Sequence record: NC_073323.1
Source: Escherichia phage vB_EcoS-phiEc3
Strand: one strand, 5' to 3'
Length of the DNA stretch: 45,288 nucleotides
Shown: positions 1-45,288 of the stretch, in pieces
Layout of the letters: each line of letters starts with the position of its first letter
How positions within the stretch are numbered: position 1 is the first letter of the stretch
Made by a program: the position numbers and the translations under genes
Notes under the pieces: model-generated
Seen by the model: only the letters and a program-made list of their open reading frames with translations
The model's database searches: none
Told to the model about the DNA's origin: nothing

Positions 1-1251
1 ACGGAGCCGCAAGGCGCGTTTCTCGGTATGCATTGCAAGTTTCCGGCATTCGTAGCTGGCTTCGGTACGGGTAAATCCGAAGTTATGTGCAACTCTGCAC
101 TACTCGACAGCATGGAAGGTGGTAGCGATTCTATCATCGCCATGTATGAGCCGACCTATGACCTGGTGCGCCTCATCCTTGCACCGCGTATGGAAGAAAA
201 GCTCACCGACTGGGGTATCCGGTACAAATACAACAAGTCTGACAACATAATCTATACGTCTTCCGGACAATTTGGGGATTTTGTTCTGCGTACACTTGAT
301 AATCCAGCAAGAATCGTTGGCTACGAATCGTTTCGTGCGAAAATCGACGAGTTGGACACCCTTAACATGGAGCACGCCGAGCACGCGTGGAACAAAGTCA
401 TCGCCCGTAACCGCCAGTTGCCGCGGACATATAAACCTATTACACCGAAACCTGCTAATACCGTTTCCGTGTTCACTACCCCGGAAGGATTCCGTTTCGT
501 ACATGACCGCTGGGTAGTCAAAAAGAATCCAGGCTACGAGATGATTCAGGCGTCCACCCTGTCTAACCCGTTCCTGCCAGAAGATTATGTGCAGTCGTTA
601 CGCGACACATACCCAGGTCAGTTGATTGACGCCTACATCGACGGCAAGTTCGTAAACCTCACGTCCGGAACGGTATACTATGCTTACGACCGCAGGAAAA
701 ACAGCAGTCGCGAAACAATCAATCCCGGCGAGACTCTGTATATTGGGCAGGACTTTAACGTAGGTCACATGGCGAGCACGGTTTACGTGCAACGCGGTAA
801 GGTCTGGCACGCTGTTGCCGAGTTGGTTGATATGTTCGATACGCCTGACGTAGTGCGGGCCATAACTGAGCGATGGAAAAGTAAGGGCCACTATATCGTT
901 ATGTACCCGGACGCCAGCGGCAAAAACCGTAAAAGCAACAACGCCAGTACCTCAGACATCGCTCAGTTACAGCAGGCCGGTTTCGAAGTACGCGCCAAAT
1001 CAACAAACCCGCCGGTTAAAGACCGCGTATCAGCAATGAACAAGGCGCTTGAATCTGGTATGGTCATGATTAATGAGCAGGCATGCCCGGTTACGGCGCG
1101 ATGCCTTGAGCAACAGGCTTACGACAAGAACGGCGAACCGGATAAATCGGGTGGTGTGGACCACCAGAACGACGGGACCACATATCCTATCGCGTATGAA
1201 ATGCCGATTCGCAAACCAGTTATTAATGTCCCGGTGACTTTCGCACTTTAA
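1..1251 (+). CDS. Terminase large subunit, 5'-partial at window edge (frame open from base 1)
   Basis: Walker A-like AGFGTGKSEV near N-terminus, C-terminal nuclease-like region; lies between small terminase and portal; no stop upstream of first ATG at 28. Confidence 0.8.
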   Translation, partial: TEPQGAFLGMHCKFPAFVAGFGTGKSEVMCNSALLDSMEGGSDSIIAMYEPTYDLVRLILAPRMEEKLTDWGIRYKYNKSDNIIYTSSGQFGDFVLRTLDNPARIVGYESFRAKIDELDTLNMEHAEHAWNKVIARNRQLPRTYKPITPKPANTVSVFTTPEGFRFVHDRWVVKKNPGYEMIQASTLSNPFLPEDYVQSLRDTYPGQLIDAYIDGKFVNLTSGTVYYAYDRRKNSSRETINPGETLYIGQDFNVGHMASTVYVQRGKVWHAVAELVDMFDTPDVVRAITERWKSKGHYIVMYPDASGKNRKSNNASTSDIAQLQQAGFEVRAKSTNPPVKDRVSAMNKALESGMVMINEQACPVTARCLEQQAYDKNGEPDKSGGVDHQNDGTTYPIAYEMPIRKPVINVPVTFAL

Positions 1252-1263
1252 GAGGATTATTCA

Positions 1264-2745
1264 ATGTTAACTATGAACGGTCAGAATCAGGGTGTTAAGA
1301 CAAAACACCGGGAATGGCTGCACCACTTCGATAAATGGCAGAAGGTGCGCCACGCGCTGGAAGGCGACCTTATCCGCTATCTGCGCAACGTTGGGAAGAA
1401 TGAGCCGGACCCGACCTACGCGGCACAGCGCCAGGAAGAATACGAGAACGGCGCTATCTGTTACAACTTCACCAAGAGAACGCTGGCGGGGATGGTCGGC
1501 AGTGTCATGCGCAAAGACCCCGAGCAGATTATACCGCCTGAACTGGAGTACCTGTTACGTAACGCGGACGGTTCTGGTGTCGGGCTGTGGCAGCACGCAC
1601 AGGATACGCTAATGGAGATTAACTCGATAGGACGTGGTGGGTTGCTGGTTGACGCCCCGGAGACTGCTGCCGCAACGGCAGCTGAACAGAACGCCGGGTT
1701 ATTAAACCCGGTCATCGCATTCTACACCGCAGAGAACATCATCAACTGGCGACTGACCCGCGTCGGTTCTGTTAACCGTGTGACAATGGTCGTGTTGCGT
1801 GAAGTGTGGGAATACTCAGAACCTGGAGCAGAGTTCGAAACTAAGTTCGGTGAACAGTACCGCGTCCTTGACCTGATTGATGGCCGCTACCGCCAGCGCA
1901 TTTACCGTTTCGACGCCGAGGGCGGCGCTCAGGGCGAAGTAATCGAAATCTTCCCGGAACTCGGCGAACAGTTACGCGGCAAAATCCCGTTCACGTTCAT
2001 TGGTGCAAGCAACAACGATGCAACCATTGACGATGCACCTTTGCTGCCGTTGGCTGAGCTTAATATTGGGCATTTCCGCAACAGTGCAGACAATGAGGAG
2101 TCCAGCTTCGTCGTAGGCCAGCCTACTCTGTTCATCGCCCCCGGTGAGAACATGAGCATGGAACAATGGAAAGAAGCCAACCCGCACGGAGTGCGTATGG
2201 GGTCACGTTCTGGCCATAACATCGGTTACGGCGGCAATGCGTTTCTGGTCCAGGCCGGTGAGAACAACCTAGCCAAGCAGAACATGCTGGATAAAGAGAA
2301 TCAGGCCATCCAGATTGGTGCGCAGCTTATCACCCCTACCCAGCAAATCACCGCTGAATCAGCCCGCCTGCAACGTGGTGCCGACACGTCCGTTATGGCG
2401 ACAATTGCACGTAACGTAAGCATGGCATATACCGATGCGCTAAAGTGGGTTGCGGGTATGCTTGGGCTTAGTGAAGATACTGAGATTGAGTTCAAGCTGA
2501 ATATGGAATTCTTCCTGCAACCTATGACAGCTCAGGACCGCGCTCAGTGGATGGCGGATATTAACGCTGGCCTGCTACCCGCCACCGCTTACTATGCTGC
2601 GTTGCGCAAGGCAGGTGTGACTGACTGGACAGATGAGGACATTCAGAACGCTATTGAAGACGCACCTCTGCCGTTGGGTTCTGTTGCTCAGGTAGCGGGA
2701 GAGATTCCGCAGTCGGCGCAGCAACAGGACACCACTCAGCAGTAA
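1264..2745 (+). CDS. Portal protein
   Basis: 493 aa ORF directly after terminase, RBS AGAGGA upstream, acidic C-terminus, canonical position. Confidence 0.75.
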   Translation: MLTMNGQNQGVKTKHREWLHHFDKWQKVRHALEGDLIRYLRNVGKNEPDPTYAAQRQEEYENGAICYNFTKRTLAGMVGSVMRKDPEQIIPPELEYLLRNADGSGVGLWQHAQDTLMEINSIGRGGLLVDAPETAAATAAEQNAGLLNPVIAFYTAENIINWRLTRVGSVNRVTMVVLREVWEYSEPGAEFETKFGEQYRVLDLIDGRYRQRIYRFDAEGGAQGEVIEIFPELGEQLRGKIPFTFIGASNNDATIDDAPLLPLAELNIGHFRNSADNEESSFVVGQPTLFIAPGENMSMEQWKEANPHGVRMGSRSGHNIGYGGNAFLVQAGENNLAKQNMLDKENQAIQIGAQLITPTQQITAESARLQRGADTSVMATIARNVSMAYTDALKWVAGMLGLSEDTEIEFKLNMEFFLQPMTAQDRAQWMADINAGLLPATAYYAALRKAGVTDWTDEDIQNAIEDAPLPLGSVAQVAGEIPQSAQQQDTTQQ

Positions 2746-2781: not shown

Positions 2782-3858
2782 ATGCTATTAACTTTAGCGC
2801 CACAGGGTTTATCTATGAGCTTACTTACATCCCTAATCAGCCATCAGATATGGCTGCAACGCACCGCATCCGGTGAGGTGAAAGACCTCACGCCGTTCAT
2901 TCAGGAGATAAGGGATGAAATCAAACGGCAGGTGCTGTTATTCGGTGACGACGGTCGCAGCACTGCGCGACTGAATAAACTGTTACGCGACCTGGAAGAA
3001 GCACTAACCGGTATTACGGGTGACTGGCAAACAAAGCTAACAGACGACCTTAAGGAACTGGCGGCGTACGAGGCTGAGTGGAACGTAAAGACACTGACCG
3101 CCAACGTAGACGCGGAATTTGTTACGCCTACCGCTGAGCAGGTATGGGCCGCTGCCGAGTTTCAACCATTATCATTGAGCGACAAGCCCGTTGATTTCAC
3201 CAAGCTGATGTCTGGATGGGGCGAAACGGAAGTAGCACGTCTTGTAACTGGAGTTAAGATGGGCTTTGTGCAAGGTCAAACCACACGGCAGATTGTTAAG
3301 AATGTTGTTGGCGCTGGTGGACTAGCCGACATCTCAGAACGTAACGCGGCTACGGTAATCCGCACCGCGCTGTCCCACGTATCCAACGAGGCCCGTAACG
3401 AGACGTACCGCCAGAACGACAACATCATCGAGAAGTACGAGTGGGTGTCAACGCTTGACAGCCGCACCAGTACGATTTGCAGGGTCAGAGACGGGATGAC
3501 GTGGGAAATTGGTAAGGGGCCGATGCCCCCAGCCCATCCGAACTGCCGGTCGTGCACGGCTCCGGTAATCAGTTCCGAGTTCGACTTCCTCGATAAAGGC
3601 GCAAAACGCGCGGCTAAAGGCGCGGAAGGTGGCACTCAGGTAAGCGCAGACACCACTTACTACGAGTTCCTTAAACAACAACCGGCGTGGTTTCAGGACC
3701 AGGCGCTCGGCCCGGTGCGAGGTAAGATTTTCCGTAACAGCGGTATATCGCCGGAAGAGTTTCGCGTAATATCTGTAGATGGTTTCGGGAATCCGCTCAC
3801 GCTTAAGCAGATGGCGGAACTCGATAAACGTGTTGCTGATTATCTGAAAGGGGATTAA
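2782..3858 (+). CDS. Head morphogenesis protein (minor head protein, SPP1 gp7/Mu F-like)
   Basis: 358 aa ORF following portal; start may be internal ATG at 2815. Confidence 0.6.
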   Translation: MLLTLAPQGLSMSLLTSLISHQIWLQRTASGEVKDLTPFIQEIRDEIKRQVLLFGDDGRSTARLNKLLRDLEEALTGITGDWQTKLTDDLKELAAYEAEWNVKTLTANVDAEFVTPTAEQVWAAAEFQPLSLSDKPVDFTKLMSGWGETEVARLVTGVKMGFVQGQTTRQIVKNVVGAGGLADISERNAATVIRTALSHVSNEARNETYRQNDNIIEKYEWVSTLDSRTSTICRVRDGMTWEIGKGPMPPAHPNCRSCTAPVISSEFDFLDKGAKRAAKGAEGGTQVSADTTYYEFLKQQPAWFQDQALGPVRGKIFRNSGISPEEFRVISVDGFGNPLTLKQMAELDKRVADYLKGD

Positions 3859-9330: not shown

Positions 9331-9689
9331 TGAGCACAGCTTTCAGTAAACGTATGCAAGGCGTAGGTACACGCCTGTTAACCAAATTCGGTAGCACGGT
9401 ATCTCTGATTCGCGCTGGCTCGAAAGTGTGGGATGAAGTTCTCGGTGAGTACGTCTGGTCTGCGGATGAAGTGTTGCCGTTGAAGGCCGTTCCGGTTCCT
9501 GTTAATGCGGGTCTGGTGAACGGTACGACGATTCAGGCTGGTGACATGATTGTTAAAGCCGATTACAGCGTCGTTCCTAAGATGGAAGACAAAGTGCAAT
9601 TCGGCGGCGAGCAATGGTCCGTCGTAGCCATTGAGAAGAAGGTGGTTAACGATGATGTTGTGTCCTACTTTATTCAGGTGAGAAAATGA
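9330..9689 (+). CDS. Head-tail joining / head closure protein (putative)
   Basis: ATG overlapping upstream stop (TGATG), RBS GGAGG; track ORF begins further upstream at 9276. Confidence 0.55.
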   Translation: MSTAFSKRMQGVGTRLLTKFGSTVSLIRAGSKVWDEVLGEYVWSADEVLPLKAVPVPVNAGLVNGTTIQAGDMIVKADYSVVPKMEDKVQFGGEQWSVVAIEKKVVNDDVVSYFIQVRK

Positions 9690-10081
9690 GTTTCGCGCTG
9701 GACGTCTCTAAGTTCGTGGAAAAGGCGAAGAAGAACCCTGAGAAGGTGATGCGTCAGGTGTCTATCAAGCTGTTTTCCGCTATTATAAAGGCGAGTCCGG
9801 TAGATACTGGTCGGTTTCGCATGAACTGGATGGCATCTGGCGGTACTCCTGCTTCCGGGATTACGGATGCTACGGATAAATCAGGAAACACAGCAACCGG
9901 AAACGCTACAAGTTTCGTGCTGAAAGCCACCGACTGGCATGAGTTCACGCTGACAAATAACCTGCCGTATGCACAACGGCTGGAGTATGGCTGGTCGCAA
10001 CAGGCCCCGCAAGGATTCGTCAGGACTAACGTGTCCCGCTTCCAGCAACTCATTAACGAAGAAGCTAGCAAGGTGAGATGA
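9686..10081 (+). CDS. Tail completion / neck protein (putative)
   Basis: 131 aa ORF, overlapping coupled starts. Confidence 0.55.
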   Translation: MSFALDVSKFVEKAKKNPEKVMRQVSIKLFSAIIKASPVDTGRFRMNWMASGGTPASGITDATDKSGNTATGNATSFVLKATDWHEFTLTNNLPYAQRLEYGWSQQAPQGFVRTNVSRFQQLINEEASKVR

Positions 10082-10494
10082 TGGGCTACTTTGAGGACTT
10101 AACAAAAGCGTTTGATGTGCCGCTGGTAGCCTTCGGAACCACCAACGGCATCAAGGTAGCGCTTGAAAACATCGACGCGCCGACGTCAACAGATACGCCG
10201 TATCTGGCAAGTTACATGTTGCTGGCGGATACCGAGCAGGCTGACTTATTCTTCACGGAACAACGCGCCGGTGTCTATCAGATAGACATTAACTACGCAT
10301 CGGTGAAAGGTAGCGCGCCAATCAATAAAATGGCAGACTTACTTAACACGGCGTTTAAAGCAGGTAAGTCATTTTCACGTAACGACATCTGCGCCGAGGT
10401 TCAATCGGTAAGCCTGGGGCCGCTGATTGTAGAAAACGGATGGGCCAAAAGACCATTGTCAATTAACTTTATTGCATTCACCAAGAGGCTGTGA
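10078..10494 (+). CDS. Tail terminator-like protein (putative)
   Basis: 138 aa ORF immediately before major tail gene. Confidence 0.5.
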   Translation: MMGYFEDLTKAFDVPLVAFGTTNGIKVALENIDAPTSTDTPYLASYMLLADTEQADLFFTEQRAGVYQIDINYASVKGSAPINKMADLLNTAFKAGKSFSRNDICAEVQSVSLGPLIVENGWAKRPLSINFIAFTKRL

Positions 10495-22067: not shown

Positions 22068-24053
22068 ATGTCAAGCGGATGCGGTGACGTTTTAAGCCTG
22101 GCGGATTTACAGACCGCCAAGAAACATCAGATTTTCGAGGCCGAGGTTATCACTGGCAAATCCGGCGGTGTAGCTACGGGTGCAGACATTGATTACGCAA
22201 CAAATCAGGTTACCGGGCAGACGCAGAAGACGCTTCCTGCCGTGTTGCGCGACGCGGGTTTTTCTCCGGTGTCATGGGATTTCTCCACAGGCGGCACGTT
22301 AACCGTTAACGACCGGGACAAGGTGGTGTATGACCCTGTTAGCGAAACATGGTACTCGTACGCAGGTACGTTACCAGTTGTTGTCCCTGCATCGTTTAAT
22401 CCAGTCGGTAACGCTAACTGGAAGCCGCAGACAGACCCAAATTTGCGTAATGATTTGGCGTCAAGTACCGCCGGTTTGGGGGCTTCACTGGTGTCTTTTT
22501 CCAACGGTAACACCGTTGAAACATTATCTGACGCGGAAGGTGCCAAGAACATAGGCAGTGGCGAAAGGAGTTTGCTTGCACGTAACAATGATATTAAGCA
22601 TTCTGGCGACTTTTCTACCCTTCAAGCCGCGGTAGATGCGTCGTTAACTAAAAACGACTTAATTGTTTCTCCGGGTGAGTATACAGAAGCAATCACTCTG
22701 GGTAGTAAGCAGATAAAAGGTGTAGGTGGTGCTGCAATATTAAAACCATCGGCAAACTATGCAAATACTGTACAGGTTAATTTATCCACCCCGCACTGGC
22801 AGTTTCGACACAGCGGTGGTTTTGCCGTAGATGGTACAGGTACAACTGGGGCCGTAGGTATTAGTTTTGACCCGTCAGACCAATATTCCGGACGTCATAA
22901 TTTTAGTGATTTATACATCCACAACATCAACAAGGCCATTCAGAAGCCTTCCGGGAACATCGGCAATACGTGGAGAAGTATTGGGGTATCTACGTGTGAT
23001 TGGGGGTATTACGCGATTAGTGGCTCAGAGATGCATTGCGGGGCCGATACCCTCTACAATATCCACTTCGACGGCATCTCCACCTATGCCGTCTACCTAA
23101 ACGGTACTGTCGATAACGGTGGGATAGGCGGATGGTGGCTTAAAGACTCCATTATTGAGGCTTCCGGAGGCGGCGGGATATACTTAAAAAGCAAATCGGG
23201 TGACTGTCCTACATCTCCATGCGGGGTATCCAATGTATGGATGGAAGCTATTGCAACATCATCGGCTGTTCAGGTAGATGGCGTGGCGCAAAAACCGCGA
23301 GTTCTCAAGTTGGTAGACACCGCGATATTCTTTGCTGAGTATTCTTATCTCAACAACATCGAGCTATCCAACTCCAACTTAGTAACTTATGGTTGCCGTT
23401 TTGACAACGCTGATGGTAATCAGGATATTGTAGTGGATGCACAAAGCACCATTGTAGCCCACGATGTGTATTTAAACGGCAGTTCTGGAAAGGACGTTAT
23501 TGTAGAGTCTGTCGCGTCGCAATCCGCAACGGTAGCCACTACAAACTTGTCTCTACGAGGAAATTTAACAAGGGGACGAGTGTTTAATACGCCGACGGGG
23601 AATAAGTTAAAAGCTATCACATTTGACTCAGGTAGCCATAATTTTTCTGGTAGCGGTACCGTTAACGGTTCGACTGTATCTGACGGACTTCACGCCGCTA
23701 CATGTACCGAATTTTCATTCCCTGGGTCCGGTTTATATGAAATGGTAGCGTCAAGAACGACACTTACATCCGGTAGATGGTACGTGTGGGGCGTCAACTC
23801 TCGCCTCCAATCAGGAACAGCAGATGTGAGTATAACGTTAGGTATTACTATGGGTAGCGTTTATACTAAGTCTGGTGAGTGGATTAGCACATTTGGGGTG
23901 GGTAAAGCTTCCGCTAACGGTACTGTAGGTCTGTACGTCTCTACTGGGGGAGGTTCAGGTGCTGTTATCAGATTTAGTGACTTCTTCATCGCTGAGTTTA
24001 CGACGCAGGCTCAGGCTTTAGCTTTCGCTAACTCCCGAATGTCGTTGGCTTAA
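22068..24053 (+). CDS. Tailspike / tail fibre with predicted beta-helical receptor-binding or depolymerase domain
   Basis: 661 aa, last structural gene, Gly/Ser/Thr/Asn-rich repeats, followed by terminator. Confidence 0.55.
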   Translation: MSSGCGDVLSLADLQTAKKHQIFEAEVITGKSGGVATGADIDYATNQVTGQTQKTLPAVLRDAGFSPVSWDFSTGGTLTVNDRDKVVYDPVSETWYSYAGTLPVVVPASFNPVGNANWKPQTDPNLRNDLASSTAGLGASLVSFSNGNTVETLSDAEGAKNIGSGERSLLARNNDIKHSGDFSTLQAAVDASLTKNDLIVSPGEYTEAITLGSKQIKGVGGAAILKPSANYANTVQVNLSTPHWQFRHSGGFAVDGTGTTGAVGISFDPSDQYSGRHNFSDLYIHNINKAIQKPSGNIGNTWRSIGVSTCDWGYYAISGSEMHCGADTLYNIHFDGISTYAVYLNGTVDNGGIGGWWLKDSIIEASGGGGIYLKSKSGDCPTSPCGVSNVWMEAIATSSAVQVDGVAQKPRVLKLVDTAIFFAEYSYLNNIELSNSNLVTYGCRFDNADGNQDIVVDAQSTIVAHDVYLNGSSGKDVIVESVASQSATVATTNLSLRGNLTRGRVFNTPTGNKLKAITFDSGSHNFSGSGTVNGSTVSDGLHAATCTEFSFPGSGLYEMVASRTTLTSGRWYVWGVNSRLQSGTADVSITLGITMGSVYTKSGEWISTFGVGKASANGTVGLYVSTGGGSGAVIRFSDFFIAEFTTQAQALAFANSRMSLA

Positions 24054-24056
24054 AAC

Positions 24057-24082
24057 TAAGGCCCCAAACGGGGCCTTTTCTC
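24057..24082. terminator. Bidirectional intrinsic terminator (GGCCCC-AAAC-GGGGCC then TTTT)
   Basis: Between convergent structural and replication modules. Confidence 0.7.
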
Positions 24083-24219
24083 TACTCTTCTGATAACTTC
24101 TCCAGTACAAACGCCAGTTGCGCATTAGCGGCGTCTCTTTGCTGACGTAGCCGCAGAACCTCTTCTTCGAGTTCCTTGATACGTTTTTGCAATGCCGGAA
24201 TTGGGGCTATGATGTTCAT
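24082..24219 (-). CDS. Small coiled-coil protein, 45 aa
   Basis: ATG overlapping upstream TGA (ATGA), RBS GAGGAAA; heptad-like KELEEEVLRLRQQ; below track cutoff. Confidence 0.35.
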   Translation of the reverse strand: MNIIAPIPALQKRIKELEEEVLRLRQQRDAANAQLAFVLEKLSEE

Positions 24220-24731
24220 CTGGTAAATTTCCTCGCAAGATACGTTATTTCTTCTTCACAAAGTTCATCAAGGTCGTTAGATACAAATCCTCTGGTGAAT
24301 GTTTTGCTGAACTTTAATCCAGCTTTATCACTGTCACCGGCGCACACCCATTCATACGGCAAAAGTGACATTTGCTGCCGTAAGTCAGCTGGTATGTTCG
24401 ACCCCAATGCGCTAACTGCATTAAACCCGCAATTCATCAAAGCAACAGCTTTAAATATGCTTTCGGTAACAAATACCACCCCGCTACTTGGCAAATACTC
24501 AAGTCCCCATAAACACGGCCTTGTTGTTCGGGTAAAGTACCGCGCGTCTTTAGGGTTTTTACAGTTCTTTTCAGCATGCGGCTTGTAATGCTGGTATCCT
24601 CGTAGCCTGCCGTCAAAACCCCACAAGTAGAATGTAGCAACGCCAGGGGCTAAGACTACCTGGAGACGGTCTGCGTCAAAACCTCGTGACAGCAGATGCG
24701 CCTTAAGTAGAAACTCTTCGAAATCCATCAT
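24216..24731 (-). CDS. TOPRIM-domain protein (primase/nuclease-like)
   Basis: Conserved Glu in VFVTESIFKA and DxD in AGDSDKAG. Confidence 0.5.
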   Translation of the reverse strand: MMDFEEFLLKAHLLSRGFDADRLQVVLAPGVATFYLWGFDGRLRGYQHYKPHAEKNCKNPKDARYFTRTTRPCLWGLEYLPSSGVVFVTESIFKAVALMNCGFNAVSALGSNIPADLRQQMSLLPYEWVCAGDSDKAGLKFSKTFTRGFVSNDLDELCEEEITYLARKFTR

Positions 24732-38746: not shown

Positions 38747-38808
38747 CTCATTTTTGTTCTATTTCACCAAACGCAACAATCGAAGCGACTATTGCAGGAG
38801 ACGCAACA

Positions 38809-38985
38809 ATGAAAACGTTCACAGAGAAACTTATGGGGTTCGTTGCAAAGCGAGACGCTGCGGCTCGTAGTTACCGTAAATGTGCCAACTGCGGCAGCGA
38901 GCAGGTACAGTTAATCTCGTACCTGGGCGACTCGGTTACACATAAGTGCAGAAAGTGCCGCCACGTACATTCGCAACACCAATAA
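38809..38985 (+). CDS. Zinc-ribbon small protein, 58 aa
   Basis: CANCGS...CRKCRH (two CxxC pairs), RBS AGGAG 8 nt upstream. Confidence 0.45.
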   Translation: MKTFTEKLMGFVAKRDAAARSYRKCANCGSEQVQLISYLGDSVTHKCRKCRHVHSQHQ

Positions 38986-40485: not shown

Positions 40486-40922
40486 CTACTATCGCGTTCG
40501 ACGGAAAGACAATGGCCTGCGACACCCGTGTTGTGTGCGGGAGTAACTGTTACAACACAGACACAAAGATATACGAGAACGATTTTGCTGTTATCGGGGT
40601 GGCTGGTGATGCGGGGGTGGGGACTATGCTTATCGATTGCCCTGATATTCTTCAGGCAAAGCACTATGACTTCGATTTCGAAGCCCTTGTGTTCGTGAAA
40701 GACACAGAAAAGGTGTATAAAGTCGCTTTTTATAAATCGTGGGATTGCGCCCTTAGTTCGGTTATTCCGGTTGCGGATGGCTTTGCAGCTGTTGGTTCCG
40801 GCGCACCTTATGCACTGGCGGCTATGGAATGCGGATATTCGGCACATGGTGGCGTAGCCGTTGCGTCGAAGTTCGACACCAACACCGGCGGCAAGATTAT
40901 TACCAAACAACTATTAGGATAA
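40482..40922 (+). CDS. HslV-like Ntn-hydrolase (proteasome beta-type peptidase)
   Basis: N-terminal MTTIAF (Thr nucleophile at position 2), [17 protein letters not shown] and [12 protein letters not shown] alignable to HslV. Confidence 0.6.
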   Translation: [146 protein letters not shown]

Positions 40923-40981
40923 TTCCTAAGCGTGGTATCCTCCAGTTACTGCATACTTAATACGCACCTGGAGGATTCATC

Positions 40982-41290
40982 TTGGATAAATTTACTGAAA
41001 CAGTGACAGGCTGGCTTCTCGCTGCCGCACTCGCCGGAGGGGTCATCGGACTACGACAACATAAGTCCGTTATTTCTGGACCCATCGACGGCTTATTCTT
41101 TATTGTAACCGGCTTCGCTTGCGCCGTATTCGGTGCGCCTCTCGCTGCCCAATGGTTCGGCATTACCGGGGAGCGTGAAATCGCTGGTCTGGGTTTCATC
41201 ATCGCTATTCTCTGGATGCCTATCTATTCCCGCCTCTCCGGTATCGTCGCCGGGGAATACATCTCACGTCGAGGAGGCCCGGATGAATGA
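40982..41290 (+). CDS. Holin (three predicted TM helices)
   Basis: TTG start 7 nt after GGAGGA; precedes endolysin. Confidence 0.55.
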   Translation: MDKFTETVTGWLLAAALAGGVIGLRQHKSVISGPIDGLFFIVTGFACAVFGAPLAAQWFGITGEREIAGLGFIIAILWMPIYSRLSGIVAGEYISRRGGPDE

Positions 41291-41555
41291 GTTATTCTGG
41301 TTCGGCGGTATGCTGGCAATCGGGGGTACATCGCTGTTTAATGTGTACCATCCCAGCGTTGATGACGGGCTGTTCGGCCGGGTGCTCTATATCCTGACTG
41401 CTATCGTCTGCGCCGCCGGATGTATCCACCTGTTACAGGGCAGCGTGTCACCAACGCTGCCTGAGACATTAATCACATTAGTTGCGCTGCGCCAGATTCG
41501 TCAGGCGTGGCTGTCATACGGAGGACATAAGCGTGTCTCGAAATATTTCAGATAA
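41283..41555 (+). CDS. Holin-like / antiholin membrane protein (two TM helices)
   Basis: ATG after GGAGG; between holin and endolysin. Confidence 0.5.
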   Translation: MNELFWFGGMLAIGGTSLFNVYHPSVDDGLFGRVLYILTAIVCAAGCIHLLQGSVSPTLPETLITLVALRQIRQAWLSYGGHKRVSKYFR

Positions 41556-42021
41556 TGGACTGCATTTCACCGCCGCGTTCGAGGGGTTCCGTGGTACTGC
41601 ATATCGTGCTACGCCAAATGAGAAGTACCTGACTATTGGGTACGGTCATTATGGGCCAGACGTAACGCCAGGCAAGACCATCACCCCCGGACAAGGCCTC
41701 CTGTTACTGAACCGTGATATGGCTAAGGCTGTAGCTGCTGTTGACGCAGCAGCACACCATTCATTGACACAGGCACAGTTCGACGCTGTTTGCGACCTGG
41801 TCTACAACGCAGGTGCTGGTGTGATTGCTGCTACTACCGGCACGGGTAAGGCACTGCGTTCTGGTGATATTGCAACGCTGCGGGCTAAGCTGGCGCTGTT
41901 CATCAACCAGAACGGCAAACCGATACTTGGACTGCGTCGTCGTACCGCCGGTCGTCTGGCGCTGTTCGACGGTAAACCGTGGCAGGAGGCTGAGGCTATC
42001 GGGCGCGCGGTGAAAGGTTGA
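41533..42021 (+). CDS. Endolysin, lysozyme-like (GH24-type)
   Basis: Motif GLHFTAAFEGFRGTAYRATPNEKYLTIGYGHYG; GTG start 8 nt after GGAGG. Confidence 0.7.
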   Translation: MSRNISDNGLHFTAAFEGFRGTAYRATPNEKYLTIGYGHYGPDVTPGKTITPGQGLLLLNRDMAKAVAAVDAAAHHSLTQAQFDAVCDLVYNAGAGVIAATTGTGKALRSGDIATLRAKLALFINQNGKPILGLRRRTAGRLALFDGKPWQEAEAIGRAVKG

Positions 42022-42086
42022 CACATAAGACTAATCCGACGATACTTAAATCACCTCCTGCTCCATCCCTCTGCTCTCCAGTTTTA

Positions 42087-42117
42087 TCCCGGCCCTGACC
42101 CAGCCGGGATTTTTTTT
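42087..42117 (+). terminator. Strong intrinsic terminator (TCCCGGC-loop-GCCGGGA then TTTTTTT)
   Basis: 7-bp GC stem and 7-T run after lysis cassette. Confidence 0.75.
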
Positions 42118-42202
42118 ATCTATTTTCTGTGATGACGAGTTGACTATTATCCTCGACCCTATTATATTTACTTCATCGACAACGAGAACGGAGTAGAGAG
42201 AA

Positions 42203-42403
42203 ATGGGCAACGTATCGACGATAGAAATAACCGAAGAACTCGAAGTTAAATGTATCGCATCAGCTATAATAGGGAATGGTTCGGTGGAAAAACTACAGAT
42301 GAGGGCTGCTGCGGGCTACATACGCAGGGCTAATAGCGCGCAGACTGATGTTTTACGTAAACGTTACCTCGTGAAAGCGTTAGAAATACTGGAGAATAAC
42401 TAA
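42203..42403 (+). CDS. Hypothetical protein, 66 aa
   Basis: ORF with ATG start. Confidence 0.45.
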   Translation: MGNVSTIEITEELEVKCIASAIIGNGSVEKLQMRAAAGYIRRANSAQTDVLRKRYLVKALEILENN

Positions 42404-42552
42404 TGAAAATCACAGATATCGAAGCATTCAAAGACGCGCAACTGATGGCGCGCATCGCAGTTAGTAACCTGAGCAACAGCATTCCAGCGGACGCGTTCTG
42501 GTTCGCTGCGATGCAGACACTTAAAGCAGCTTATGCAGGAGAGAAGAAATGA
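42403..42552 (+). CDS. Hypothetical protein, 49 aa
   Basis: TAATG coupling, RBS GGAGAA; below track cutoff. Confidence 0.35.
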   Translation: MKITDIEAFKDAQLMARIAVSNLSNSIPADAFWFAAMQTLKAAYAGEKK

Positions 42553-42746
42553 AAGTTAAAGCCGCTAAAATTCTCTGGTTAGCCGCCCTTGACTATGTGA
42601 CAGAGGGTAAAGTGTACGATGTGTACAACCCGACAGCTACTGGTTTCGGTTATATAGACTCCGACGACGACTGCTGTATTTTCATAGACTTTGGTAACGA
42701 TGAAGGTGATGGCTTCCACGGCGTTAAATGGGAGATTGTAGAATGA
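42549..42746 (+). CDS. Hypothetical protein, 65 aa
   Basis: ATGA-coupled. Confidence 0.45.
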   Translation: MKVKAAKILWLAALDYVTEGKVYDVYNPTATGFGYIDSDDDCCIFIDFGNDEGDGFHGVKWEIVE

Positions 42747-42901
42747 GCGAACAAGGTCAAGTAAGCCAACCACTACGGGTAGGCCGTAAAGTCAGCCACA
42801 CCCCGTTCCCGACACGCGAGGAACTGATGAAACGTAACAGTTTCCCTGGGCCGGACAAGAACAAGTATCTCAATCGCATGTGGGGAGAGCGTAAAGAATG
42901 A
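42743..42901 (+). CDS. Hypothetical protein, 52 aa
   Basis: ATGA coupling both ends; below track cutoff. Confidence 0.35.
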   Translation: MSEQGQVSQPLRVGRKVSHTPFPTREELMKRNSFPGPDKNKYLNRMWGERKE

Positions 42902-43101
42902 TTGTTAGCTATGAAATGCCATCACAGGGCCAATTTGTTGCGGTGTGGTTTGTACGGGATGCCCCATATTCGGCAACTCTTAGATGGGAATACGGGCAAC
43001 TTAAAGCCTATAACCACTCCGATGACTCCTGGGATTGCGAATGCGACCATGGGTATAGCGCCCAGGTGCTGGAATCATTAGAAGCAACTTTTTACAGGTG
43101 A
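42898..43101 (+). CDS. Hypothetical protein, 67 aa
   Basis: ATGA-coupled. Confidence 0.45.
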   Translation: MIVSYEMPSQGQFVAVWFVRDAPYSATLRWEYGQLKAYNHSDDSWDCECDHGYSAQVLESLEATFYR

Positions 43102-43107
43102 TAAGAA

Positions 43108-43281
43108 ATGACTAACAACGAATACGAGAAAGCATGCGTCGAACACGCGACAGGTGAGTCCGAAATCGCATGGATTGACGCCCACATCGAGCACCACTTA
43201 CGGCGGGTCGATAAACTGATGGAACGTCGCCGTGAGTTGATTAACCGCTTCAACCTGAACAAAGGTGACAGCAATGCCTAA
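43108..43281 (+). CDS. Hypothetical protein, 57 aa
   Basis: RBS AGGTGA; below track cutoff. Confidence 0.35.
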   Translation: MTNNEYEKACVEHATGESEIAWIDAHIEHHLRRVDKLMERRRELINRFNLNKGDSNA

Positions 43282-43552
43282 AATAACAATCGCATCACTC
43301 GAGCGTCGTATTCTGGTGCTTGAGTCGGAGAGACAGACGTTAGGTGGGCAACTGTCAATTAACGGTGAGTTTCAACTGGAGGCGTTTAAGCAGTTACTCA
43401 CACTCACGGCGGACATAGAAAATATGCTCAGCTTGCTGGAGTCAGGAGAGTGGTCAGAGCATTGCACTAAATCAGAGTTAGGCCAACGGCTTGAGTCGGA
43501 GATTACTAACATGCTTAGTGGTCTTGGGTGGTCGCAAGATGAAAGCGCCTGA
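43274..43552 (+). CDS. Hypothetical coiled-coil protein
   Basis: ATG at 43274 within track ORF 43265-43552. Confidence 0.45.
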   Translation: MPKITIASLERRILVLESERQTLGGQLSINGEFQLEAFKQLLTLTADIENMLSLLESGEWSEHCTKSELGQRLESEITNMLSGLGWSQDESA

Positions 43553-43721
43553 GCCAGTAGTTATCGATGGTGTCCTGTGGAAACCTTACTCGGTTAACCA
43601 CCTCGACGCTGACGGGAAGAAGTTCAGCTTCTACATTTTTGCAATCAGCCGAGAGCACGCCGCCTGTGTGGTCGATGATATACGAGAAACGGCGTGGCTC
43701 GGTGATGAGATAGTGGGGTGA
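43539..43721 (+). CDS. Hypothetical protein, 60 aa
   Basis: ATG at 43539 within track ORF 43491-43721. Confidence 0.4.
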   Translation: MKAPEPVVIDGVLWKPYSVNHLDADGKKFSFYIFAISREHAACVVDDIRETAWLGDEIVG

Positions 43722-43808
43722 GGGTATGAGTCTTGAGGCGGTTATTGGTCTTGTAGTGGCAAGCTATTTTATCGGCGTATTGGTTGGTTTTGTGTGGGGT
43801 CGAGAATA

Positions 43809-44090
43809 ATGGCGCGTACTGTTGCATCGAGATTCACTGATATTGAATCTGCGATAGAAGAGGCCGTCTATCGTAAATATGCAAACGCCAGTGAAACACA
43901 GAATTACGGTGTTATCTCGGTCAATGGCATGTTCGAAACACGCAGGGTGCGCGCTTGTCGACCGCAAGAGTTTATATGGTCTACAGAGGGGTTGGTTCCT
44001 CGGTGCCTCGTTCTTACTAACGGCAGCCATACGGTGTTCGTAGACCTGGATAAGAAAGACATAACGGTTACTAAGGGAGAGATTAATTGA
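43809..44090 (+). CDS. Hypothetical protein, 93 aa
   Basis: ATG at 43809 within track ORF 43794-44090. Confidence 0.45.
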   Translation: MARTVASRFTDIESAIEEAVYRKYANASETQNYGVISVNGMFETRRVRACRPQEFIWSTEGLVPRCLVLTNGSHTVFVDLDKKDITVTKGEIN

Positions 44091-44323
44091 TTACCAGCAT
44101 TCCGAACCTGATTGAAGAATTTGGCACGATGGCGGAGACATGCCGTCAAACCGGCATCAATGAGATGACGATTGCCAAGTACAGCAAAGACGTTGATTGC
44201 GAACGCCATGTAATTTATAACAACCGTCTGATGACGCACGTTAAGACAAGCCCGGTGTTATTCACGCGCCGTGGTATCACTAAAACAGAGCAACGCATTG
44301 CGCGAGAGGAGAGCGGGGAATGA
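44087..44323 (+). CDS. Hypothetical protein, 78 aa
   Basis: TTG start after GGGAGA. Confidence 0.4.
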   Translation: MITSIPNLIEEFGTMAETCRQTGINEMTIAKYSKDVDCERHVIYNNRLMTHVKTSPVLFTRRGITKTEQRIAREESGE

Positions 44324-44592
44324 TTGAATATGATAACTACCACATAAACCGGTGTGAGGCACTTGAATTTTTGTCCAGAAACTTCCGCGATTTCCCAGAA
44401 CACATGCCTAATGTACGCGAAGTTGCGGAGGGTATTTCCGAGAACATATTCAAAGGCTGGCGATTCGTCGTTATTGATTCTGGTGAGTTGGTTTTCGCTG
44501 ATTGCCTTTCACCATGTATTCGTAAAATAGACCTTGAGGAATTTAATGCAACTTTTAGTCTTTCCGAATGCCTGGGTTATAGCGGTAGCTAA
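44320..44592 (+). CDS. Hypothetical protein, 90 aa
   Basis: ATGA-coupled. Confidence 0.45.
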   Translation: MIEYDNYHINRCEALEFLSRNFRDFPEHMPNVREVAEGISENIFKGWRFVVIDSGELVFADCLSPCIRKIDLEEFNATFSLSECLGYSGS

Positions 44593-44651
44593 CGACCATT
44601 ACGGCGGCGACGGTAAACGAGCGCCACGCCACGGCCTATATAACTGATACA

Positions 44652-44676
44652 AGCCCTCTACGGAGGGCTTTTCTGT
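44652..44676 (+). terminator. Intrinsic terminator (GCCCTC-TACG-GAGGGC then TTTTCTGT)
   Basis: GC stem plus T run upstream of small terminase. Confidence 0.55.
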
Positions 44677-44768
44677 ACATCCCGCCCAATCCCCTTATAT
44701 AATCCCTTTAGACGCGTAGGGCGCGTCTGGTGCGCTCTGATGGTCAGACGCATATGCAAGGGGATTCT

Positions 44769-45278
44769 ATGAAGCTGAAACTTAAGCAGCCATCGCCAGA
44801 GGTGGTACAAGCTGCACATGAAGAAGCTGTTAGCGCAAACCGTCGCCGTAAACGACCGCGCGGTAAACAGAGCCTTTATCAATCATCCCGTAATTCCGCT
44901 GCGCTGTGGGACCCGGACTATTGCGACGAATTGATTCGTTTCTTTGACCGCACGTCGTGGGAGCTTGTGCCCACGTCCAAAGGTGACGAACGCCCGCTGA
45001 TTCAGGATAAACCGCCATCACTGGCCCGCTTCGCCTTACACATCGGCGTCACTATCCCTATTATTAAGCTTTGGCTGCGTGAGATTCCCGCATTTGCAGA
45101 AGCCTGGGAGACAGCACAGGCGCTGGAAGAGGCATACTTCACTGAAACGGGGGCCGCGGGCATCTCTGCTACGTTTGCTGCCGCGAAACTGGGCCTGAAT
45201 AAAACAGTTGTCGCCGAAGAAGTACGCGACGAGCCAATCAGCGAAGTAACAATTAAGGTGGTGTCCGGTGAACGTTAA
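44769..45278 (+). CDS. Terminase small subunit
   Basis: Basic N-terminal region (RRRKRPRGK), position directly upstream of large terminase frame; ATG after AAGGGGA (track ORF from 44730). Confidence 0.6.
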   Translation: MKLKLKQPSPEVVQAAHEEAVSANRRRKRPRGKQSLYQSSRNSAALWDPDYCDELIRFFDRTSWELVPTSKGDERPLIQDKPPSLARFALHIGVTIPIIKLWLREIPAFAEAWETAQALEEAYFTETGAAGISATFAAAKLGLNKTVVAEEVRDEPISEVTIKVVSGER

Positions 45279-45288
45279 TATCACGGCA

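Follow-up and report, generated by a model that had tools for sequence, protein, structure and literature searches.

The 45,288-nt stretch of Escherichia phage DNA analysed here, referred to as the window, is very probably the unit-length ring of a Kagunavirus that was opened 21 nt inside the large terminase gene (terL), at the same point as the Golestan record, and that is probably packaged by the headful mechanism, with terL running from position 45,268 over the end of the window and on from base 1. An assembled ring would have been written out as a linear record, cut 21 nt into terL as in the Golestan reference record, so that terL would start at the GTG at 45,268, leave the window at its end and resume at base 1. 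Judging from relatives, the packaged DNA would probably be cut from concatemers by the headful mechanism, and such cutting would give terminally redundant, circularly permuted molecules, whose assemblies close into rings. The splitting of terL appears to be an artefact of the point at which the record was opened. The window can be used as a complete genome; its annotation should carry TerL over the junction, unless the record is re-opened upstream of the small terminase gene (terS). Kagunavirus genomes with an intact 423-aa TerL have already been deposited, and in tailed phages there is nothing out of the ordinary in a terS-terL overlap, a GTG start or an assembly that closes into a ring.

Completeness of the genome and the junction of its ends

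The closest overall relatives of the window were Escherichia phages vB_Eco_K-01 (PQ435593) and VB_EcoS-Golestan (MG099933/NC_042084; Kagunavirus golestan), and the matching records are classified in Guernseyvirinae and Kagunavirus. In BlastN comparisons, approximately 86-95% of the window aligned with K-01, fEg-Eco06 and Golestan in long blocks of approximately 85-100% identity and in the same gene order. The collinearity of the ring was assessed by BlastN of the window against these three complete relatives. Against fEg-Eco06, window position 1 corresponded to 6080, position 38,766 to 45,491 (the end of that record), position 38,975 to 48 and position 45,288 to 6079. Against the circular record K-01, the match was on the reverse strand, with approximately 95% of the window aligned at 96-100% identity; the aligned blocks contained every module annotated in that record, namely terS, terL, portal, head, tail, tape measure, tailspike, replication and lysis. 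Against Golestan, the collinearity spanned the window from base 1 to the final base. Because of this closed-ring collinearity with complete relatives, the window represents one full unit-length copy of a known Kagunavirus (subfamily Guernseyvirinae) siphophage genome. No record identical to the window was present in the phage collection searched.

When the two ends of the window were each compared by Megablast with 50,697 phage records, approximately 160 Guernseyvirinae records were found. The last and first bases of the window mapped to adjacent positions in more than 15 records, including every listed record opened elsewhere, among them (window end/window start) SCS92 (8705/8704), fEg-Eco06 (6079/6080), 22664BS2 (4321/4322), NTEC3 (8705/8704), XY2 (39,244/39,243), XY1 (23,524/23,523), JSSK01 (3299/3300), ZCEC5 (3545/3546), phiWAO78-1 (650/651), ST20 (43,736/43,735) and Bas70, 71, 74 and 75 (each 559/560). 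SCS92 carries the 120-nt junction (60 nt from either side) unbroken and without a mismatch, fEg-Eco06 has it unbroken with a single mismatch, and on the K-01 ring the match is exact. Immediately upstream of base 1, the relatives opened elsewhere carried the last bases of the window rather than some other sequence. Judged by these alignments, the two ends join without loss or duplication. A search for exact repeats of 5-399 nt found no terminal direct repeat in the window.

The frame of terL was followed through the junction. The frame of base 1 is free of stop codons up to the ATG at 28, as the first-pass annotation had read it. The window length was confirmed as 45,288 nt (3 × 15,096), so that the GTG at 45,268-45,270 is in frame with base 1; its frame ends on the GCA at 45,286-45,288 and runs on across the boundary. 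Because the nearest in-frame stop upstream of this GTG is the TAA at 45,247-45,249, the GTG is the sole ATG, GTG or TTG codon before the ATG at 28. Codons 1-7, beginning with the GTG and reading M-N-V-N-I-T-A, occupy 45,268-45,288 of the forward strand, and codons 8-423 with the stop codon (TAA, 1249-1251) occupy 1-1251. The joined ORF contains exactly 423 codons before the stop, and Walker A lies at residues 26-33, close to the earlier estimates of about 423 aa and of residues 25-33. After joining, terL is preceded by terS (44,769-45,278) and directly followed by a portal protein gene (1264-2745, forward strand), taken from the ORF list and corresponding to the portal annotated in K-01, fEg-Eco06 and RP180. 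The local features alone are weak evidence for the join, since nine stop-free codons have a chance probability of approximately 0.65 and a length divisible by three one of 1/3; the comparative data are decisive. The proposal that the window probably holds the whole genome, linearised within the terminase gene, is borne out by the collinear ring and the adjacency of the ends in relatives. The accompanying term "circularly permuted" is borne out only at the level of the database records, which represent one ring opened at differing points.

Two regions of the window differed from individual relatives. The tailspike region (approximately 22,297-24,728) did not align with the otherwise near-identical K-01, and it showed approximately 93-96% identity to Golestan and fEg-Eco06; the difference from K-01 has the appearance of a mosaic exchange of the receptor-binding module. 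In addition, fEg-Eco06 has an insertion of approximately 0.9 kb relative to window position 3473/3474, which the window lacks. It lies at 9552-10,447 of fEg-Eco06 (L005), in a head-morphogenesis gene annotated there as "minor head protein with inserted intein".

TerL family, packaging mode and the opening base

TerL matched Pfam Terminase_6N over residues 24-233 (44.1 bits; cutoff 22) and Terminase_6C over residues 255-404 (48.3 bits; cutoff 22.6). Additionally, phrog_2 and phrog_10250, both "terminase large subunit" in PHROGs, matched the protein. TerL is predicted to be an enzyme of the Terminase_6N/6C type in two domains, an ATPase at the N-terminus and an RNase H-like nuclease at the C-terminus. 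The conserved residues were located in an alignment of 11 TerLs with 27-90% identity, which was also the basis of the family profile. The Walker A motif or P-loop (AGFGTGKS; codons at 55-78, forward strand) fits [AG]xxxxGK[ST], with G27, G31 and K32 invariant. Walker B Asp123 and the catalytic Glu124 (within IDELD; 346-351, forward strand) and T167-P168 of the coupling (C) motif were likewise invariant. In the predicted RNase H-like nuclease domain, which aligns with that of D6E TerL, the acidic residues D258, D311, D394 and D398 were invariant. Pro10 and Gln11, whose codons occupy 7-12 of the forward strand, were invariant in all 11 sequences, down to 27% identity.

Comparison of the TerL alignment with T4 gp17 by hhalign gave a probability of 88.6% and placed P10-Q11 on Y142-Q143, the P-loop on SRQLGKT, IDE on Walker B-Glu and TTP on the coupling motif ("TTTP"). 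Gln11, upstream of Walker A, is at the position of the adenine-recognition Gln ("Q motif"), approximately 15-18 residues before Walker A. In a profile search of the PDB, D6E TerL was matched over its full length (5OE8, E-value 1.8e-16) and the ATPase domain of P74-26 was also found (4ZNI, 5e-8), with weaker matches to T4 gp17 and Sf6 gp2; HK97 TerL was absent from the hits. The profile of 11 homologs was needed for this, as a single-sequence phmmer search of PDB sequences with the joined TerL returned chance hits only. The family profile showed no similarity to HK97 gp2 in hhalign (probability 0.3%) and a marginal match to P22 gp2, confined to the nuclease domain. Because the match to P22 gp2 is marginal too, TerL similarity alone cannot decide the packaging mode.

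We consider headful packaging of the virion DNA likely, mainly from results on relatives. PhageTerm analysis indicated headful packaging for the Jerseyvirus SeF1 (PMC9409062), and Jerseyvirus-type TerLs are approximately 89% identical to that of the window in tBLASTn. PhageTerm also assigned the headful/pac mode to the Guernseyvirinae-like phages Sciku and Shashou (PMC6753286 and PMC6776780), and its failure to detect termini in the Kagunavirus fBC-Eco01 fits this mode. Moreover, the opening points of relatives' records are scattered over many unrelated positions. The literature yielded no direct end determination for a Kagunavirus, the PhageTerm mode calls being those for Jerseyvirus or Guernseyvirinae-like relatives.

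An unlikely reading is that the genome is complete and terL crosses the boundary but that the virion DNA is not permuted and has fixed ends elsewhere, either cohesive or with short direct terminal repeats. The most plausible site for such ends would be the non-coding stretch ahead of terS, and ring closure in assemblies would come from the end repeats or from ligated ends. In its favour, the TerL of the close relative JSSK01 was placed with "3' cos HK97" terminases in a neighbour-joining tree (PMC11641727), whereas the 0.3% probability against HK97 gp2 and the PDB hits to D6E, P74-26, T4 gp17 and Sf6 gp2, without HK97, point the other way. That label is not supported by our profile comparisons, in which the best solved relatives are D6E, P74-26 and T4. 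The "no obvious termini" reported by PhageTerm for the Kagunavirus fBC-Eco01 (PMC9825357), a negative result, would also be compatible with fixed ends; however, the headful calls for a Jerseyvirus and for two Guernseyvirinae-like phages, together with the scattered opening points, speak for headful packaging.

The non-coding region that precedes terS, 176 nt long, also counts towards fixed ends, as it contains a hairpin, a promoter-like site and a palindrome. The terminator-like hairpin AAGCCCTC-TACG-GAGGGCTT (44,651-44,670, forward strand) was found as an inverted repeat and matches by consensus only. A promoter scan detected TGTACA-18-TATAAT (44,674-44,703, forward strand; 10/12 matches, again by consensus only) ahead of the terS-terL operon. 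Further downstream are the perfect palindrome AGACGCG-TAGGG-CGCGTCT (44,710-44,728) and a third AGACGC half-site (44,746-44,751). These candidate elements at 44,651-44,751 could be regulatory or could form a terminase recognition site.

The ends of the window itself most likely reflect a record convention rather than physical ends of the DNA. The first base of the window, 21 nt inside terL, is also that of the Golestan, SCS44, BEU33 and BEU35 records, and SCS44 and Golestan are of equal length. According to its paper, Golestan was assembled de novo from Illumina data, without any determination of the ends. The BASEL authors stated that circular contigs were linearised at the first nucleotide of the terminase gene or operon, and the BASEL Kagunavirus records begin at the equivalent of the GTG at 44,730. 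Because the opening base is shared with Golestan, whose ends were not determined, and because such linearisation is a documented practice, the ends of the window would be an inherited convention.

In headful phages, pac sites are often located in or near terS. It is accordingly conceivable, but very improbable, that the window ends are true physical ends produced by a terminase cut (pac series initiation or cos) 21 nt into terL and 10 nt past the terS stop. This general knowledge of pac sites counts for a cut near the terS stop, as does the identical first base of five sequences (the window, Golestan, SCS44, BEU33 and BEU35). Against it, most independent assemblies run straight through the opening point, neither a terminal repeat nor an overhang signature is present in the window, the ends of Golestan were not determined in its paper, and Golestan and SCS44 are equally long; genomes are commonly re-oriented to a RefSeq exemplar, and the BASEL convention is explicitly documented. 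It is similarly improbable that packaging is preferentially initiated by a cut at the shared first base, 10 nt beyond the terS stop and within the first codons of terL; such a cut would locate the Kagunavirus pac cleavage site.

The start of terL and its overlap with terS

From the comparative data, the true start of terL appears to be the GTG at 45,268, giving a protein of 423 aa. In fEg-Eco06, SCS92 and RP180, "terminase large subunit" is annotated as 1272 nt from the base equivalent to 45,268. For the start region, 32 IMG/VR loci with relatives were considered, from which 31 sequences were extracted, representing 26 distinct versions. The GTG was invariant in 26/26 of these, whereas codon 17, the equivalent of the ATG at 28 (28-30, forward strand), was CTG or CTA (Leu) in 8/26, the Jerseyvirus-type versions, and therefore cannot serve as their start. 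Among codons 2-16, 15 third positions varied, compared with 6 first and 6 second positions, and differences from the window, summed over the distinct versions, comprised 141 synonymous and 78 non-synonymous changes. Translated sequence varies in this way.

Homology extends to the N-terminus as well. In tBLASTn searches with the joined TerL, residues 1-423 were covered in hundreds of phage records, and relatives at 41-55% identity matched from residue 2-6. The alignment with phrog_38319 began at residue 6 of TerL and position 5 of the profile. Much longer N-termini in homologs, which the first-pass annotation had named as evidence against its joined gene, were not the rule: close relatives have 423 aa from the same GTG, and distant TerLs begin within approximately 3 residues of it (Jersey, 416 aa; TRS1, 427 aa; D14P, 431 aa; a Vibrio phage, 406 aa). 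Longer annotated TerLs, with 20-32 extra aa, were found only in Dhillonvirus WFI (461 aa) and a Klebsiella phage (463 aa). The adenine-recognition Gln11 is present only with the GTG start, and the 407-aa form starting at Met17 would lose it. In T4 gp17, Q143A gives an inactive subunit in packaging assays, and work on adenine recognition is cited in the same paper (PMC8589836). Considering the coding substitution pattern, the invariant P10-Q11 and the counterpart in Q143, the first 16 residues would be a functional part of the ATPase.

A start at the ATG at 28, giving 407 aa as in Golestan, with the upstream frame and GTG being fortuitous, has the annotation of Golestan (28..1251), the SHAK7858 and KMB35 records beginning at window positions 28 and 24 (at or just before this ATG) and the commoner start codon on its side, but it is effectively refuted and scarcely credible, since the GTG is invariant and Jerseyvirus-type relatives have CTG/CTA in place of this ATG, codons 2-16 carry coding-type substitutions, distant TerLs all retain P10 and Q11, which align with the essential Q143 of T4 gp17, no Shine-Dalgarno sequence lies upstream of it, and records with an unbroken terL annotate the GTG. 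The same ATG was also considered as a second, internal start, comparable with the internal starts annotated in T4 gene 17, and was rejected, since a Shine-Dalgarno sequence is lacking and the codon varies among relatives. The predicted N-terminal peptides are MNVNITATEPQGAFLG and (M)NVNITATEPQGAFLGMHCK for the GTG start and MHCKFPAF... for Met17. We found no experimental evidence in the literature of GTG use or of terS-terL translational coupling in a Kagunavirus.

The GTG is preceded by a Shine-Dalgarno-like AAGGTGG at 45,255-45,261 of the forward strand, within the terS coding sequence, with a spacer of 6 nt (45,262-45,267); the first-pass annotation had placed this motif at 45,254-45,260 and counted 8 nt. 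AAGGTGG was identical in all Kagunavirus- and Jerseyvirus-type relatives examined, with GGAGG in its position in more distant ones. The GTG had further been described as overlapping the small terminase stop. This is correct for the two ORFs, which overlap by 11 nt (45,268-45,278), and incorrect for the codon, as the GTG ends 5 nt before the TAA at 45,276-45,278. Because the ribosome-binding site of terL is inside terS and the ORFs overlap by these 11 nt, terS and terL are probably translationally coupled.

The terS gene encodes 169 aa from the ATG at 44,769 to the TAA at 45,276-45,278 (forward strand). It was assigned to phrog_3064 "terminase" (E-value 9.6e-76; residues 1-166 against profile positions 1-168 of 175), and relatives annotate the homolog as the small terminase. 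Two other in-frame starts are available on the same strand, GTG at 44,730 (182 aa) and ATG at 44,754 (174 aa), and public records differ in their choice: 44,730 in BASEL and RP180, 44,754 in Golestan and K-01, and 44,769 in fEg-Eco06 and SCS92. The ATG at 44,754 is not conserved, whereas 44,730 and 44,769 are both conserved into Jerseyvirus, and 44,769 has a better Shine-Dalgarno sequence (AAGGGG) than 44,730.

The opening of records in or beside terL has affected the annotation of several relatives. Because the Golestan record (MG099933, 28..1251) was opened inside terL, its TerL was annotated with 407 aa from the internal Met17. That protein lacks the conserved Gln of the adenine-recognition motif, and an equal truncation is invited wherever a record is opened at this base. 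OR594183 (SHAK7858) and OR525704 (KMB35) were apparently rotated to the false start, and the coordinates suggest that 27 and 23 nt, respectively, were left at the ends of these records. As both were rotated to or near the false start, the truncation looks to be propagating. The circular K-01 record was opened 10 nt from the opening point of the window. Its TerL (43,985..45,244, minus strand) is a "hypothetical protein" with a CDS of 419 aa, whose first codon by coordinate mapping would be the ATC at window position 45,280 (codon 5), which looks like the result of a ring opened beside the terS stop. Meanwhile, OM632668 (BEU35) starts at the first base of the window and yet has the homolog of the terS/terL junction at 40,742-41,330 of its 44,569 nt. 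Approximately 3.2 kb (41,331-44,569) follow the expected end of that record, which may be a duplication or mis-assembly.

Comparison with known phages

At the level of the genome, K-01 and Golestan agree with the window in genus, gene order and size, and the K-01 record is circular. Golestan shares the opening base with the window and matches it at 100% identity over the first 1300 nt; however, several early-gene blocks differ in BlastN.

At the level of the operon, the start of terL and its Shine-Dalgarno sequence lie within the 3' end of terS in Jersey, TRS1, D14P, a Vibrio phage and T4 (genes 16/17), as they do here. The overlapping terS-terL arrangement is common in tailed phages, and nothing about it is unusual in the window. 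At the level of the protein, T4 gp17, D6E TerL (PDB 5OE8) and P74-26 TerL (PDB 4ZNI) combine an ATPase with an RNase H-like nuclease in two domains, like the TerL of the window. The Q motif is at residue 143 in T4 gp17 and at residue 11 in the window TerL, which has a much shorter N-terminus.
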